From IMG/VR virus record IMGVR_UViG_2706794696_000003: DNA of 9,605 nucleotides. One strand, 5' to 3'. The notes under the pieces were generated by a model. The model was not told the DNA's origin. It saw only the letters and a list, made by a program, of their open reading frames with translations, and made no database searches. This stretch comes from a virus (lineage: Duplodnaviria; Heunggongvirae; Uroviricota; Caudoviricetes). How positions within the stretch are numbered: the stretch's first letter is position 1; every line of letters starts with the position of its first letter. Positions 1 to 5,800 of the stretch are shown here, piece by piece. A program made the position numbers and the translations under genes.

Positions 1-189
1 ATCGCTCGCCACGGGAATATCTACGGCAGCAAGCCAGTAATGGGTTAAGTGATAACAGGTGTCTGGAAATATAGGGGCAAATCCAGCGTTCATCAGCCCC
101 CGCATTGCCGACAGGATCACAGACGGGGGGCGCAACTGGTTGTCGTTCAACTGGCCCAGCTACCGTTCTTGTATCAGAGGTGTGGCTGC

Positions 190-1581
190 ATGACAACACC
201 AGTCTGGCGTAATGATGACCTGGAAGGCGCTGTCATTGGCGCATTCTTTCTGCGTGGGGCAGATCATGAAGTGATGGATATTCTGATCACACTACCGGCG
301 GACATTTTTTCTGTACGAGCGTATCGGGATATCTACACAGGCATCTGCAGACAGGCCCGTGTTTCAGGAGTGATTGACCCCGTGCTGTTGTGTAATGAGA
401 TGCCGGAACTTGCCCCGGTGATTACTGATACCGGGCGTAAAACCTGGGTGAAGTCTTCACTGGAGCACTATGTTGCAGCGTTGCGGCGCAATGCCGCACT
501 GCGCGATGCAGAAAAAACACTGAATGAGGCGCTGCAGAAATTACGTGATGCGCATACCTGTGAAGCAGCTGAAGATGCCCTGAAGGATGCGCAGAACATG
601 ATGGTCACACTGTCGACAGGAAAGGGCGTCATTCAGCCGGTACATATTGATGATGTGCTTCCGGAAGTGGTTGAGCGTGTTGAATGCCGGAATCAGGGGC
701 TGGAGAAATCCAGGACGTTGATGACCGGTATTGATGAACTGGACGCAAAAACAGGCGGTATGGAGCCCGGAGACCTGGTATTCATTGCCGCCCGTCCTTC
801 GATGGGGAAAACCGAACTTGCGCTGGACATCATCGACAAGGTGACTGAGCAGGGGCATGGTGTGCTTCTGTTCACCATGGAGATGGCGAACATCCAGATT
901 GGTGAACGTATGGTGTCTGCGGCTGGAGGGATGCCAGTATCACGCCTGAAATCTGTGGCTCACTTTGAAGATGAAGACTGGGCGCGTTTCTCACAAGGGG
1001 TGGGGCGGATGACCGGGCGCAATATCTGGATGGTGGACCAGGCGAACCTGACCATTGATGAGATATGCGCAACAACGAAACACCATCTGATTAAACATCC
1101 GGAAACGGCGCTGGTGGTGGTTGATTATCTCGGGCTGATAAAAACCCGAACCACGGGGCGTCATGACCTTGCCGTGGGTGAAATCTCAAAGGGGCTTAAA
1201 GGCCTGGCAAAATCCGGTGGTTTTCCGTTGATTGCGCTGAGCCAGCTCTCCCGCGGTGTGGAGTCCAGACCCAATAAACGTCCCATGAACTCAGACCTGA
1301 AAAATTCCGGAGAAATAGAGGCGGATGCAGACATCATTCTGATGCTTTACAGGGATGAAGTGTACAACCCGGATACACAGGCTACAGGCATAGCAGAAAT
1401 TAATATCACGAAACAACGTAACGGTTCTCTGGGGACGATTTACCGGCGTTTTTATAACGGACATTTTCTGCCTGTGGACCAGGAAAGCGCACAGGTTCTT
1501 TCCACCCCAATGCGGCAGCCCCAGCCGCGCAGATACAGCAATACACGTACCGACAGCAGTAAGATGGAGCGTTTCTTTTGA
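190..1581 (+). CDS. DnaB-family replicative DNA helicase (phage P22 gp12-like)
   Basis: Walker A motif AARPSMGKT and a DnaB-like N-terminal motif (LEGAVIGAFFL) are present in the translation. ATG 190 is preceded by GAGGTG at 178-183. The ORF track starts at GTG 49, but the 47 extra N-terminal residues look non-coding, so the start is moved to 190. Confidence 0.85.
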   Translation: MTTPVWRNDDLEGAVIGAFFLRGADHEVMDILITLPADIFSVRAYRDIYTGICRQARVSGVIDPVLLCNEMPELAPVITDTGRKTWVKSSLEHYVAALRRNAALRDAEKTLNEALQKLRDAHTCEAAEDALKDAQNMMVTLSTGKGVIQPVHIDDVLPEVVERVECRNQGLEKSRTLMTGIDELDAKTGGMEPGDLVFIAARPSMGKTELALDIIDKVTEQGHGVLLFTMEMANIQIGERMVSAAGGMPVSRLKSVAHFEDEDWARFSQGVGRMTGRNIWMVDQANLTIDEICATTKHHLIKHPETALVVVDYLGLIKTRTTGRHDLAVGEISKGLKGLAKSGGFPLIALSQLSRGVESRPNKRPMNSDLKNSGEIEADADIILMLYRDEVYNPDTQATGIAEINITKQRNGSLGTIYRRFYNGHFLPVDQESAQVLSTPMRQPQPRRYSNTRTDSSKMERFF

Positions 1582-1592
1582 ACAACCAGACA

Positions 1593-1835
1593 ATGACTTT
1601 TACCTCTGAACAATTGCGTAAACACGCGCAGGAAATGTTGCGACAGGCGGAACAACTGGAAAAAACAGGTGTAACAAAAGATGCCATTCGTCGGGATATG
1701 GTGCCAGCGCTCAGGGAACTGATGCAGGCGAAACATCGCGCACAAAAAGCGGTGGATGAGCTCGTTGATTGTGTGGCAGAGCTGGAAACCAAAGTTGGAA
1801 AGTTTGAAAAAATGGTGCAGGAGGTGCTGCGCTGA
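1593..1835 (+). CDS. hypothetical small helical protein (nin-region ORF, 80 aa)
   Basis: ORF between helicase and rusA; its stop overlaps the rusA start (TGATG). The predicted protein is charged and helical, with no motif I recognise. Start taken at ATG 1593 rather than the TTG 1578 of the ORF track; the ribosome-binding site is weak. Confidence 0.5.
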   Translation: MTFTSEQLRKHAQEMLRQAEQLEKTGVTKDAIRRDMVPALRELMQAKHRAQKAVDELVDCVAELETKVGKFEKMVQEVLR

Positions 1836-2206
1836 TGCGCCATGAGTTTATTTTACCTTATCCGCCGACGGTGAATACTTACTGGCGACGTCGTGGCAGC
1901 ACATATTTTGTATCAAAAGTTGGTGAGCGTTATCGCCGTGATGTGACGCTAATTGTTCGCCAGCAGCGGCTGAAATTAAACCTGTCCGGAAGGCTGGCGA
2001 TAAAGATTATTGCAGAGCCACCGGATAAGCGCCGTCGTGACCTGGACAATATCCTGAAAGCACCACTGGATGCGCTGACGCATGCCGGACTACTCATAGA
2101 CGACGAGCAGTTTGATGAAATCAATATTGTGCGCGGTCAGCTCGTTCCTGGTGGGCGACTGGGCGTGAAGATTTATGAAATCACAGGTGATAACGATGGC
2201 GCGTGA
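1835..2206 (+). CDS. rusA: RusA-family Holliday junction resolvase
   Basis: 123 aa. N-terminus [12 protein letters not shown] and the motif RRRDLDN...DDEQ match the RusA family (acidic catalytic residues in a conserved layout). Sits in the nin region upstream of Q, as is typical. Confidence 0.9.
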
Positions 2207-2582
2207 TATTCAGCAGGTTATGGAACGGTGGGGGGCTTGGGCTGCAAACACTCATGAAGATGTATCCTGGGCGTCGATCGCTGCTGGTTTTAAAGGGTTA
2301 ATTCCGTCGAAAGTGAAATCACGCCCTCAGTGTTCTGATGATGATGCAATGATAATTTGTGGCTGTATGGCCCGGTTGAACAAGAAAAATCAGGATTTGC
2401 ACGATTTGCTGGTGGATTATTACGTAGGTGGAATGACTTTTATGAGTCTGGCACGGAAACATGGGTGTTCGGATACCTGTATTGGCAAGCGCCTGCAGAA
2501 AGCGGAAGGGGTTATTGATGGCATGTTGATGATGCTTGATATCCGGCTGGAGATGGACAGATACGTAGAACGAATTATGTAG
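2196..2582 (+). CDS. late-gene antitermination protein Q (QuuD-like)
   Basis: N-terminus [23 protein letters not shown] and the [10 protein letters not shown] motif resemble the DLP12 QuuD-type Q proteins as recalled. Start chosen at ATG 2196 (AGGTGA at 2183-2188, 7-nt spacing), overlapping the rusA end by 11 nt; ATG 2175 from the ORF track is possible. Confidence 0.85.
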
Positions 2583-2586
2583 GTGC

Positions 2587-2616
2587 TTGACCAGACACAT
2601 TGTCCGGGGCTATATT
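2587..2616 (+). promoter_or_regulatory. candidate late promoter PR' (sigma70-like) directly after Q
   Basis: TTGACC at 2587-2592, 18-bp spacer, TATATT at 2611-2616, beginning 5 nt after the Q stop codon. Position and orientation match lambdoid PR'/qut organisation. Inferred from sequence pattern only. Confidence 0.5.
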
Positions 2617-2677
2617 CCTCACGCGCCAGCAAAATCTGGCGTCGGGATTGGAACCCCGGATAGAGACCGCGACAGAC

Positions 2678-2700
2678 ACACGCCGCGAGCGTGTTTTTTA
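2678..2700 (+). terminator. candidate intrinsic terminator (tR'-like)
   Basis: Hairpin ACACGC / GCGTGT with a 5-nt loop, followed by a T-run at 2695-2699, about 75 nt downstream of the predicted PR' start. Confidence 0.5.
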
Positions 2701-2827
2701 TTGTCGTATGCACGCGCACATCTGAATTATGGTGGGGCGCATGGGGGAGCTGAAAAGCTCGCCGGTCGGTTTCCCGGTAGTTCCAACCCTGTGCGTCTCA
2801 CCACCCGATGATTGGAACCTGACGGTG

Positions 2828-2856
2828 TTGACAGTTTCAGGTTTGCAGTTTACATT
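2828..2856 (+). promoter_or_regulatory. candidate sigma70 promoter for the cargo gene
   Basis: Consensus -35 TTGACA at 2828-2833, 17-bp spacer, -10 TACATT at 2851-2856, about 200 nt upstream of the ORF6N gene start. Confidence 0.4.
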
Positions 2857-2891
2857 TCCCCGCGGTGCTCAAAACACCTCGAAAGCGGTAT

Positions 2892-2919
2892 CCACACCCG
2901 ATAGCCATGTGGTTTTTTT
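2892..2919 (+). terminator. weak hairpin plus U-tract (possible attenuator or alternative tR')
   Basis: CCACA / TGTGG stem with an 11-nt loop followed by seven T (2913-2919). The stem is short, so confidence is low. Confidence 0.3.
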
Positions 2920-3062
2920 GTGTCCAGAATTCTTGGTTTATGACCGGGTGTGCGGCTAATACAATACCAGCAATGGAAATACGCCCGCCGACTTTCGACG
3001 GTTTTGAGCGCCCGGTCACCCTCTCAAAAGGGGTAAATCAAAATATTCGAAAGGACATGTCT

Positions 3063-3626
3063 ATGAATCGCACGTCTATTGAAAAACTCCCGTCACTTAC
3101 GCATAACCATCTTCCTGTCATGACAACAGAGCTGCTGGCTGATTTGTACGGAACAGAGCGCCAGCGTTTGACAAACAATTTCAATCGAAACAAAGAACGG
3201 TTTATAGAAGGTAAACATTTTTTCCTGATAGAAGGTGATGCGTTACGAGAGTTGAAGAACGAAAACTCTTTAAGAGTTTCTGTGAAAATTGCCCGTAACG
3301 TTCGCTCCCTCATCCTCTGGACAGAACGTGGCGCAGCCCGTCACGCCAAAATGCTCGAAACCGATCAGGCGTGGGAAGTGTTCGAAAAACTGGAAGACTG
3401 TTATTTCAACCAGAAACAGCCACCAGCGGCACAAAACACATCTATCGAAAATGATGGATGCGCATTACTGAGCCACTTCGATAAACACGGTCAGGTTGAG
3501 TTCACGGAAAAGGTACCCGCCGATGCGATGGTATGTACTCTGGAACGGTTTAAATTTTATCTGGAGCAACACGGGTGGATCGTTGCCCGTAAAGAGCAAC
3601 TGGTGGAGCGGTTGATGCGGTTTTAA
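3063..3626 (+). CDS. ORF6N-domain protein (antirepressor/Rha-like N-terminal domain, uncharacterised C-terminus)
   Basis: 187 aa from ATG 3063 (AAGGA at 3051-3055, 7-nt spacing). The segment ELLADLYGTERQRLTNNFNRNKERFIEG...LILWTERGAARHAKML matches the ORF6N domain pattern as recalled. The longer ORF-track start at 2865 is rejected because it begins inside the predicted promoter and has odd composition. Confidence 0.8.
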   Translation: MNRTSIEKLPSLTHNHLPVMTTELLADLYGTERQRLTNNFNRNKERFIEGKHFFLIEGDALRELKNENSLRVSVKIARNVRSLILWTERGAARHAKMLETDQAWEVFEKLEDCYFNQKQPPAAQNTSIENDGCALLSHFDKHGQVEFTEKVPADAMVCTLERFKFYLEQHGWIVARKEQLVERLMRF

Positions 3627-3701: not shown

Positions 3702-3727
3702 AAACCCGCCGATGAGCGGGTTTTTTT
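3702..3727 (+). terminator. intrinsic terminator after the cargo gene
   Basis: AAACCCGC / GCGGGTTT stem with a CGATGA loop, followed by seven T (3721-3727). Confidence 0.7.
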
Positions 3728-3777
3728 ATACCTGAAAAACGGCACAGGACGTTAAACGTGCTGGTGGTCAGATGAGT

Positions 3778-3806
3778 TTGCAGATGTGATGACATATGGT
3801 TATTAT
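3778..3806 (+). promoter_or_regulatory. candidate promoter of the tRNA array
   Basis: TTGCAG at 3778-3783, 17-bp spacer, TATTAT at 3801-3806, then a GC-rich discriminator (TCTGCCTCC) just before the mature 5' end of the first tRNA at 3816, as seen in stable-RNA promoters. Confidence 0.35.
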
Positions 3807-3815
3807 TCTGCCTCC

Positions 3816-3892
3816 GGCCCTTTAGCTCAGTTGGTCAGAGCGAGCGACTCATAATCGCCAGGTCGCTGGTTCAAGTCCAGCAAGGGCCACCA
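3816..3892 (+). tRNA. tRNA-Ile2 type (genomic anticodon CAT, ileX/ileZ-like)
   Basis: 77 nt. Cloverleaf folded by hand: acceptor GGCCCTT / AAGGGCC, anticodon loop CTCATAA, T-loop TTCAAGT, 3' CCA encoded. Overall sequence resembles the lysidine-modified Ile2 tRNA, not elongator Met. Confidence 0.8.
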
Positions 3893-3893
3893 A

Positions 3894-3970
3894 CCACCAC
3901 TAGCTCATCCGGATAGAGCATCAACCTTCTAAGTTGACGGTGCGAGGTTCGAGTCCTCGGTGGTGGGCCA
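3894..3970 (+). tRNA. tRNA-Arg (anticodon TCT, reads AGA)
   Basis: 77 nt. Acceptor CCACCAC / GTGGTGG, D-stem GCTC/GAGC, anticodon stem TCAAC/GTTGA with loop CTTCTAA, T-arm CGAGG-TTCGAGT-CCTCG, 3' GCCA. Begins 1 nt after the previous tRNA. Confidence 0.85.
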
Positions 3971-3972
3971 GC

Positions 3973-4048
<76 letters not shown>

Positions 4049-4051
4049 TAT

Positions 4052-4126
<75 letters not shown>

Positions 4127-4254: not shown

Positions 4255-4449
4255 ATGGTGCATTGTCNNNNNNNNNNNNNNNNNNNNNNNNNNNNNNNNN
4301 NNNNNNNNNNNNNNNNNNNNNNNNNNNNNNNNNNNNNNNNNNNNNNNATTGGTGTGCTGGGAAGTCTGCTTCTGGGGCTTCTGACTTATCTGACAAATCT
4401 GTATTTCAAAATAAGAGAAGACAAGCGTAAGGCTGCGAGAGGTGAATAA
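4255..4449 (+). CDS. S: class II holin / pinholin (phage 21 S-like), interrupted by an N-run
   Basis: The post-gap segment 4348-4449 encodes [33 protein letters not shown], matching the C-terminal half of the phage 21 S pinholin as recalled; its stop overlaps the endolysin start (TAATG). The N-terminal part lies in or before the N-run. ATG 4255 is in frame only if the gap length is exact, so the start is provisional. Confidence 0.55.
4268..4347. other. run of 80 N (assembly gap or masked bases)
   Basis: Directly visible in the sequence. It falls inside the holin coding region. Confidence 0.99.
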
Positions 4450-4946: not shown

Positions 4947-5407
4947 GCAGAGTCACCGCGATTATCTCCGCTCTGGTTATCTGCATCATCGTCTGCCTGT
5001 CATGGGCTGTTAATCATTACCGTGATAACGCCATTACCTACAAAGAGCAGCGCGACAAAAACGCAAGAGAACTGAAGCTGGCGAACGCAACCATTACTGA
5101 CATGCAGCAGAGACAGCGTGATGTTAATGCACTCGATGCTAAATACACGAAGGAGTTAGCTGATGCGAAAGCTGAAAATGAAACTCTGCGCGCTGATGTT
5201 GCCGCTGGTCGTCGTCGGTTGCACATCAAAGCAGTCTGTCAGTCAGTGCGTGAAGCCACCACCGCCTCCGGCGTGGATAATGCAACCAGCCCCCGACTGG
5301 CAGACACCGCTGAACGGGATTATTTCACCCTCAGAGAGCGGCTGATGACGATGCAGATGCAACTGGAAGGGGCACAGGAGTATATCCGCACTCAGTGCAT
5401 TAAGTAG
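4943..5407 (+). CDS. Rz: Rz i-spanin (inner-membrane spanin subunit)
   Basis: 154 aa. N-terminal transmembrane helix ([18 protein letters not shown]) followed by a coiled-coil periplasmic domain; very similar to lambda Rz as recalled. Start ATG 4943 overlaps the endolysin stop. Confidence 0.9.
5163..5345 (+). CDS. Rz1: Rz1 o-spanin (outer-membrane lipoprotein), embedded in Rz in the +1 frame
   Basis: 60 aa. Lipobox LVVVGC followed by a proline-rich segment (PPPPPAW); lies entirely within Rz in a different frame, the classical embedded-spanin arrangement. Confidence 0.85.
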
Positions 5408-5449
5408 CCTTTTTATCGTGGTAAACATTTCGCAGGGTATGAGGTATTT

Positions 5450-5800
5450 ATGCCATCACTAATCCCACGTGCCTGCCGTAAGCGTGGATGTGCAGGTACA
5501 ACCACAGACAGTTCGGGTTACTGCGATAAACATCGCGGTGAAGGCTGGGTGCAGCACCAGCGCGGACTGAGCCGCCACCAGCGTGGCTATGGCTCAAAAT
5601 GGACGGTGATTCGTGCCCGTATTCTGAAGCGCGATAAAGGTCTGTGTCAGTTGTGTCTGCGTGTCGGTGTGGTGAGCGAGGCGAAAACCGTCGACCACAT
5701 CATCCCGAAAGCGCATGGCGGAACAGACGCAGACAGCAACCTGCAGAGTCTGTGCTGGCCCTGCCATAAAGCGAAAACAGCGCGCGAACGAATCCGGTGA
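5450..5800 (+). CDS. HNH endonuclease (packaging-associated, HK97 gp74-like)
   Basis: 116 aa. Cys-rich zinc-binding pairs (CRKRGC, CDKH, CQLC, CWPCH) and the HNH motif (DHIIPKAHGG...N). GAGGT ribosome-binding site 4 nt upstream. Located immediately upstream of the terminase genes. Confidence 0.9.
   Translation: MPSLIPRACRKRGCAGTTTDSSGYCDKHRGEGWVQHQRGLSRHQRGYGSKWTVIRARILKRDKGLCQLCLRVGVVSEAKTVDHIIPKAHGGTDADSNLQSLCWPCHKAKTARERIR

Follow-up and report, generated by a model that had tools for sequence, protein, structure and literature searches.

The product of the gene at 3063-3626 of the window (the whole 9,605 nt stretch that was analysed) is probably a prophage 'antirepressor' of the AnrP type, from the Bro network of domain-swapping proteins. 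The gene would form an RNA-gated cassette between the Q gene and the lysis genes of a lambdoid prophage, probably one of Shigella or E. coli. Sequence comparisons indicate that its C-terminal tail (residues ~117-187) is a real, discrete cassette that appears to have been moved by recombination between three kinds of phage regulator. The AnrP-type architecture is already known, as are swapping within the Bro network and the link of that network to C4/isrK RNAs (PMC10111431). The gene as such adds little: it is one more AnrP-like, RNA-gated prophage inducer, and sequenced genomes of Shigella, E. coli and Salmonella already contain it by the thousand. The tail has clear boundaries, is modelled as a domain in no family database and is found in about 11 % of complete E. 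coli genomes. It could be given a family model, and it provides a clean handle on which half of these 'antirepressors' recognises the target. The features of the region are listed in Table 1.

Table 1. Features of the window referred to in the text
Feature	Position	Strand	Basis
DnaB-like helicase gene	49-1581		
RusA gene	1835-2206		
Q-family late antiterminator gene, directly upstream of the AnrP-family gene	2175-2582	+	Pfam PF06530, E 2.7e-52
Promoter-like site, TTGACC-18-TATATT (putative function)	2587-2616	+	Consensus scan; position matches PisrK of Gifsy-1 (PMC4825925)
c4-a1b1 target motif	2610-2662	+	Rfam RF03163, 50.1 bits, above gathering score
isrK-like short RNA	2623-2699	+	Rfam RF01394, 77.5 bits, above gathering score
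C4-type (P1 C4/P4 CI-like) structured RNA	2725-2808	+	Rfam RF01695, 71 bits (gathering score 45)
Small ORF, 76 aa	2729-2959	+	ORF list; ATG at +107 of isrK start
Second promoter-like site, TTGACA-17-TACATT	2828-2856	+	Consensus scan
sRNA-Xcc1-family RNA, directly upstream of the AnrP-family gene	2942-3025	+	Rfam RF02221, 77.4 bits (gathering score 53)
AnrP-family 'antirepressor' gene	3063-3626	+	187 aa plus stop; PHROG 2379 full length, E 4e-85
Head module, residues 1-115	3063-3407	+	ORF6N (residues 13-97, nt 3099-3353) plus conserved helix
Pro/Ala/Gln-rich linker, residues 116-132	3408-3458	+	AF2 pLDDT <50 for residues 112-131
Folded core of C-terminal module, residues 133-187	3459-3623	+	AF2 of tail alone: beta-hairpin, helix, GW turn, helix
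Intrinsic terminator-like hairpin and T-run downstream of the AnrP-family gene	3702-3723	+	Terminator scan

The gene and its ORF6N head

The reading frame ends with TAA at 3624-3626 and begins with ATG 3063, which follows an AAGGA Shine-Dalgarno sequence after 7 nt. This ATG is conserved as the start codon in the alignment of E. coli and Salmonella homologues, and most homologues begin at its equivalent. Upstream of ATG 3063, the frame is open as far as GTG 2865, which would give a protein of 253 aa, and a long form is annotated in some Salmonella records (P0006, P0118). Long forms starting at GTG 2865, ATG 2907, 2940 or 2973 were rejected. In E. coli EC12, a 2-nt indel and an in-frame TAG interrupt the upstream extension, which is therefore not conserved coding sequence. 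It has no meaningful Pfam match and overlaps the Xcc1-type RNA, and its conservation is treated here as probably acting at the RNA level.

The sequence-only reading had placed an ORF6N domain at the N-terminus and the gene downstream of Q, and both assignments were borne out. Pfam ORF6N (PF10543) matches residues 13-97 with 74.4 bits (gathering score 27.8; E 8.8e-21), with positions 5-86 of the 86 in the profile covered, and the Q gene is identified in Table 1. The same reading had presented the protein as ORF6N fused to an uncharacterised C-terminal region. The fusion is not a peculiar one, and the complete 187-aa architecture is routine: all 187 of its 187 positions match PHROG 2379 ('anti-repressor'), and the family includes STM2616 of Gifsy-1.

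Conservation is uneven along the protein. Among 47 homologues, the mean pairwise identity is 0.75 for residues 1-31, falls to 0.48 in a hypervariable block within ORF6N (residues 32-80), rises to 0.96 in the nearly invariant residues 81-115, and is 0.55 in the linker (residues 116-132) and 0.78 in the tail core (residues 133-187), though the value for the tail is in part a selection effect, as the homologues were picked by their similarity to this protein. On the pattern of variability, residues 32-80 might, speculatively, be taken as a candidate specificity surface.

A C-terminal tail shared with Rha and AntA regulators

Searched alone, residues 116-187 gave nothing in Pfam or NCBIfam at E≤1. 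The C-terminal extension (NQKQPPAAQNTSIENDG...) had been described in the sequence-only reading as starting at about residue 120 and as not assignable. The string is present in the protein but begins at residue 116, and the C-terminal ~70 residues are indeed covered by no Pfam, NCBIfam or PDB entry. It was also proposed there that the same module be sought on other N-terminal domains, and it does occur on Rha and AntA heads. A HMMER search with residues 116-187 against 1.84 billion representative proteins found only 11 relatives, and these carry three unrelated heads, namely ORF6N, Rha (PF09669) and AntA (PF08346).

Of 5426 complete E. coli genomes, 597 contain the tail DNA (nt 3440-3626), for the most part with 90-95 % identity. 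When 40 of these records were sampled at even spacing, the annotation was Rha-family regulator in 26 and ORF6N protein in 14. The copy at the end of Rha-family genes is ~93 % identical, and an AntA gene also ends in a related copy. With the tail as query, word-index searches for homologues returned mostly gene fragments, and were used for heads and naming but not for counts. When the DNA of the window gene was aligned with that of one Rha gene, there was no similarity until ~nt 3410 (codon 116/117), and beyond this point near-identity extended to 2 bases past the stop codon. The junction with Rha-headed genes, at ~nt 3410, thus falls inside the linker stretch.

The 66 tail codons compared between the window gene and the Rha copy include ~14 synonymous and 8 non-synonymous differences (dS 0.43, dN 0.053, dN/dS ~0.12), and almost all of the non-synonymous changes lie within the linker. 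The tail is under purifying selection, and this pattern identifies it as a selected protein module rather than a conserved RNA or a passenger.

Instead of being a separate module, the C-terminal region could be what the ORF6N family normally ends in, corresponding to ORF6C or KilA-C. As this would predict, hardly any close homologue lacks the tail, and a single PHROG spans the whole protein. However, we consider it most improbable. No Pfam match at E≤1 was found to ORF6C (PF10552), either in the whole protein or in residues 116-187, or to KilA-C/ANT (PF03374) in the C-terminal half, and identification of the tail as ORF6C or KilA-C was rejected on this ground. Other ORF6N PHROGs (1760, 4792, 8244 and 377) match residues 1 to ~125-131 only and then continue into other tails. 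The mapped junction also contradicts it, with the same tail DNA found on Rha heads after a sharp boundary and a related tail found on an AntA head.

With an ORF6N head and a tail that recurs on Rha (PF09669) and AntA (PF08346) heads, the protein belongs to the Bro network (Iyer et al. 2002; Mageeney et al. 2023, PMC10111431), and shares with it a network head, a swapped segment that has no Pfam family and C4/isrK RNAs nearby. ORF6N, Rha, AntA and Ash proteins have been described as swapping domains and as linked to C4/isrK (P4 CI/seqA-like) RNAs, and 144 unnamed 'b' segments were catalogued in satellites (Mageeney et al. 2023, PMC10111431). Among the closest counterparts are Enterobacteriaceae Rha/AntA regulators (WP_001348267.1, found at trpA/ompW in E. 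coli, P0142 and P0143), in which the last 70 residues are identical or near-identical to those of the window protein. As in the window, an isrK+C4 leader lies upstream of these tail carriers in the loci scanned with Rfam. They differ in having unrelated heads (PF09669 or PF08346 instead of PF10543) and in their location, which is elsewhere in the prophage, beside an integrase or in an early region of Rac-like type, or else in a prophage remnant.

ORF6 of Lactococcus phage bIL285 is the founding protein with both ORF6N and ORF6C. Its ORF6N head (H69) is 41.6 % identical to the window protein over residues 1-151, but it ends in ORF6C, whereas the window tail has no PF10552 match.

Predicted structure and the question of DNA binding

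The full-length AF2 model has a mean pLDDT of 69.9. Within the head, pLDDT is 79-90 for residues 11-60 and 88 and 85 across residues 81-100, with lower values (69-79) at residues 61-80 and 101-110. The linker joining the two modules is predicted to be disordered (Table 1). The tail has a pLDDT of 54-65 in this model, but when modelled alone from a 32-sequence alignment its mean was 78.8 (core 84-93; pTM 0.46). The model of the tail runs from a beta-hairpin through a helix and a GW turn to an amphipathic last helix. Modelling of this segment followed by a PDB structure search, as the sequence-only reading had proposed, thus gave a beta-hairpin plus two helices with no PDB neighbour, and the tail has no significant sequence or structure match to any solved PDB structure. 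For the full-length protein, neither the model (best E about 1) nor the profile, searched against PDB sequences, gave anything significant in the PDB; the best, non-significant neighbours of the model were winged-helix and MerR-like DNA binders. The tail has a net charge of 0 and a pI of 7.0, which argues against a DNA-binding role for it. Its low pTM and neutral charge would be more in keeping with a role in interaction or oligomerisation than with nucleic-acid binding.

It has to be considered whether the protein is instead a sequence-specific DNA-binding transcription factor, either an activator or a repressor, with an ORF6N head that binds DNA and a tail that dimerises. DNA binding is the usual view of the heads in the Bro-N/KilA-N/Rha network, of which ORF6N is part. 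One member of this network, PLE CapR, acts as a repressor that binds promoters (PMC10111431), and BRO proteins are DNA binders (PMC7313666). The work on AnrP reports raised antQ-operon transcription and no repressor contact (PMC4825925), and the weak best PDB neighbours of the full model point the same way. However, those structural matches are not significant (best E about 1), the net charge of the head is only +0.9 and that of the tail 0, and the gene is placed and regulated like ant of P1 and anrP of Gifsy-1, behind a C4-type immunity RNA. We regard such a transcription factor as rather unlikely, and an AnrP-type 'antirepressor' as the probable identity.

Leader RNAs between Q and the gene

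The sequence-only reading did not mention the 480 nt that separate Q from the gene, in which four RNA elements exceed their Rfam gathering scores (Table 1). Transcription from the first promoter-like site would start near 2623, which is the first base of the isrK match, and the isrK-like RNA has its own terminator hairpin (2678-2694) followed by a T-run, as detected in the terminator scan. The small ORF at 2729-2959 has no Pfam match and is possibly a leader peptide. A further ORF (2587-2808), considered as a Phage_ASH candidate, was rejected because it does not match that Pfam family.

The Xcc1-type RNA has a C4-like layout, with a closing stem, two inner hairpins and a CACCC tail. It is kept in place in E. 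coli EC12 and in Salmonella (L002) and is absent from Gifsy-1 of LT2, and the extended leader seen in the window is also found in E. coli EC12 and in a Salmonella Gifsy-like prophage. The stretch 2860-2941 is strongly complementary to the Xcc1 element, with a duplex energy of -57.7 kcal/mol versus -35±4.9 for shuffled sequences (0 of 300 shuffles as stable). Assessed by a crude method, the duplex energy of isrK with the C4 region was not distinguishable from that of shuffles (35 of 300 shuffles). Between the second promoter-like site and the Xcc1 RNA there is also a CCACA...TGTGG hairpin followed by T7 (~2893-2920). According to a published paper, Xcc1 lies upstream of an ORF6N gene in APSE phages. 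Members of the sRNA-Xcc1 family may be leaders of the C4 type that belong to Bro-network genes, and not independent sRNAs. At a Citrobacter locus (L019), the Xcc1 element alone precedes a Rha-plus-tail gene.

All 13 of the tail-bearing loci scanned with Rfam, which include the window, L001, L002, L005, L006, L010 and L015-L020, have an isrK+C4 and/or Xcc1 leader upstream, and this is the case irrespective of the type of head or the position in the prophage. At two loci, of which L006 belongs to this Rfam-scanned set, an ash reading frame is found where the leader lies or directly before the head. In L006 (4052-4237), the N-terminus of P0143 that matches Phage_ASH (residues 14-101) overlaps the Rfam isrK and C4 matches, and in L008 a CDS annotated as 'ash family protein' (5349-5624) directly precedes the Rha gene. 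In such cases, the same DNA may have both a coding and an RNA function, as described for P4 eta/CI, or else some of the CDS calls are a translated RNA gene.

The leader in the window has two antisense-RNA modules in tandem, isrK/C4 and then the Xcc1-type RNA. If both are real, they would constitute a two-step gate on an SOS-independent route to prophage induction. Such a route is relevant to how stable prophages are in enteric pathogens, among them prophages that carry toxins.

The isrK promoter-like site starts 5 nt past the Q stop codon and is followed by the short terminated isrK RNA. In lambdoid phages, this place just after Q is where one would expect the late promoter PR' and the short leader that is terminated after it (the 6S RNA analogue). 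If the isrK site were PR', Q would read through the isrK terminator and the antirepressor would be co-expressed with the late genes, creating a positive feedback loop. Other candidate late promoters are found at 2828-2856 and 3777-3806.

Gene neighbourhood

The window represents the replication-to-packaging part of a lambdoid prophage. In addition to the genes in Table 1, it includes genes for lysozyme, Rz, HNH, the small and large terminase subunits and the portal. The immunity region lies outside the window, and there is no repressor gene within it. The order of Q followed by the antirepressor gene is also found in E. coli EC12, SCU-125 and Gifsy-1. Rfam detected no match to isrJ in the window; in Gifsy-1, isrJ occupies the place of the terminator at 3702-3723.

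Four tRNA genes in a row (Met-CAT, Arg-TCT, Thr-TGT and Gly-TCC; 3816-4126) separate the antirepressor gene from the lysis genes. In Stx phages, tRNAs and toxin genes occupy this slot. A run of N (~4270-4350) lies shortly before the lysozyme gene, at the position where the related loci L011-L014 have a class II holin gene, and the holin is therefore unreadable in the window.

Comparison with Gifsy-1 and with P1, P7 and P4

STM2616 of Gifsy-1 is 49 % identical to the window protein over residues 3-184 (BLASTP, E 6e-58) and matches PHROG 2379 across 187 positions (E 3e-98). Both proteins are 187 aa long and consist of an ORF6N head, a linker and a homologous tail, with the core at residues 81-115 nearly identical. 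The Gifsy-1 tail is a divergent allele with about 30 % identity to that of the window, and its relationship to the tail profile was recovered by hhalign (probability 94.5 %, E 8e-8). We infer that STM2616 is AnrP (SL2578) because it lies downstream of Q/isrK.

The Gifsy-1 locus has been described as antQ-isrK-orf45-anrP-isrJ (Hershko-Shalev et al. 2016, PMC4825925). AnrP expression raises the level of antQ-operon mRNA and induces Gifsy-1, and the short IsrK RNA switches on translation of anrP by acting on the read-through leader via the small upstream ORF (PMC4825925). That study shows induction and raised transcript levels only, and no repressor contact (PMC4825925); for the AnrP family, AnrP included, 'antirepressor' is a label derived from phenotype and homology.

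In Gifsy-1, as in the window, Q (STM2617) is followed by a1b1/isrK, a C4 RNA in the equivalent position and then STM2616. The small ORF of the window starts at +107, as does the first AUG of orf45. However, there are several differences. The Q proteins differ in length, and Gifsy-1 has isrJ after STM2616 whereas the window does not. The stop codon of orf45 overlaps the start of anrP (AUGA), but the small ORF in the window ends 104 nt before ATG 3063 and the overlap is absent. The window also has an extra ~250 nt that includes the second promoter-like site and the Xcc1-type RNA. Because of these differences in the leader (no ORF overlap, an additional promoter-like site and the Xcc1 RNA), the Gifsy-1 switch may not transfer unchanged.

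The immI region of P1/P7 (c4 antisense RNA, icd, ant1/ant2) resembles the window in having an a1b1 motif and then a C4-type RNA upstream of an 'ant' gene. In P1/P7 immI and in P4 CI/seqA, an RNA and not a protein gates the downstream gene, and by analogy an RNA would likewise gate a Bro-network gene here. The window gene is in the late region, whereas those systems are in the immunity region. Citron and Schuster (1990) are said to have found that C4 represses in P1. In Gifsy-1, the short RNA activates (PMC4825925), unlike the repressing C4 of P1.

Proposed role

Based on the Gifsy-1 work, the promoter just after Q would make mostly a short terminated RNA, and transcripts that read past the isrK terminator would form a folded, translationally silent leader in which RNA-RNA pairing within the isrK/C4 system would decide ribosome access to the gene. 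The antirepressor would then be made only when the RNA switch opens or when Q-modified polymerase reads through. Once made, it would derepress the early/Q operon, either in its own prophage or in a co-resident one, and lead to lytic growth, as overexpression of AnrP does in Gifsy-1. The most likely route of derepression would be binding to a CI-like repressor. The tail would serve as a protein-protein module, for self-association or for contact with a shared partner. Its assignment as an oligomerisation or interaction module draws on negative evidence and is likewise provisional. Specificity may, more speculatively, be carried by the variable face of the head (residues 32-80).

A bolder possibility is that the tail is a structurally new small domain and the common working end of RNA-gated Bro-network regulators in enterobacterial prophages, gripping a conserved target such as part of a CI-type repressor or a host factor, with the ORF6N, Rha and AntA heads acting as variable input. 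We think this unlikely. If true, it would explain both the exchange of an exact cassette and how strongly purifying selection maintains it, including in remnants that show no repressor gene.

Distribution

A protein search of 5.8 billion proteins gave 4661 matches. The best 120 of these are all 64-99 % identical to the window protein and about 185-195 aa long, come from Shigella, E. coli, Salmonella and Citrobacter, and are named 'ORF6N domain-containing protein' or 'antirepressor'. The exact 187-aa sequence was found in 3937 blocks of an assembly collection, and the chromosomes involved are Shigella-like. In chromosomes with the identical protein (L011-L014, about 500-3000), an IS3-family transposase gene lies just upstream of the prophage DnaB-like helicase gene, and prophages with this IS may be defective and not inducible.

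In a scan of one genome per prokaryotic species, the tail was detected only in Salmonella, Lelliottia, Shigella, E. coli and Citrobacter, and it is thus found only in Enterobacteriaceae. No match at E≤0.01 was obtained when 50,697 deposited phage genomes were searched using tblastn, and the module has so far been seen in prophages only.

The position of the gene, in a moron-rich slot between Q and the lysis genes, raises the question of whether it is not a regulator of lysis and lysogeny but a 'moron' with a toxic or exclusion function, Kil-like as has been suggested for truncated P4 Eta, or else part of a defence system. The head weakly matches the PADLOC candidate system PDC-S05 (E 1e-7), P4 Eta/Kil occupies an analogous RNA-gated position (PMC10111431), and many Rha-plus-tail copies are in the trpA/ompW prophage remnant, where the annotation of the 12 kb examined includes no repressor gene. 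However, PADLOC gave no match to the tail, and the toxicity observed on expression of IsrK or AnrP in Gifsy-1 was traced to AntQ and not to AnrP itself (PMC4825925). A role of this kind is very unlikely, and an RNA-gated 'antirepressor' remains the preferred reading.

The remnant is exemplified by L008, from E. coli strain 1290, which lies between trpA/ompW and tail-fibre remnants. There, the Rha-plus-tail cassette and its 'ash' leader are intact within an otherwise heavily decayed prophage, and their survival may reflect either a retained trans-acting function or a neutral relic. Several other sampled E. coli genomes have a Rha-plus-tail copy at a near-identical coordinate.
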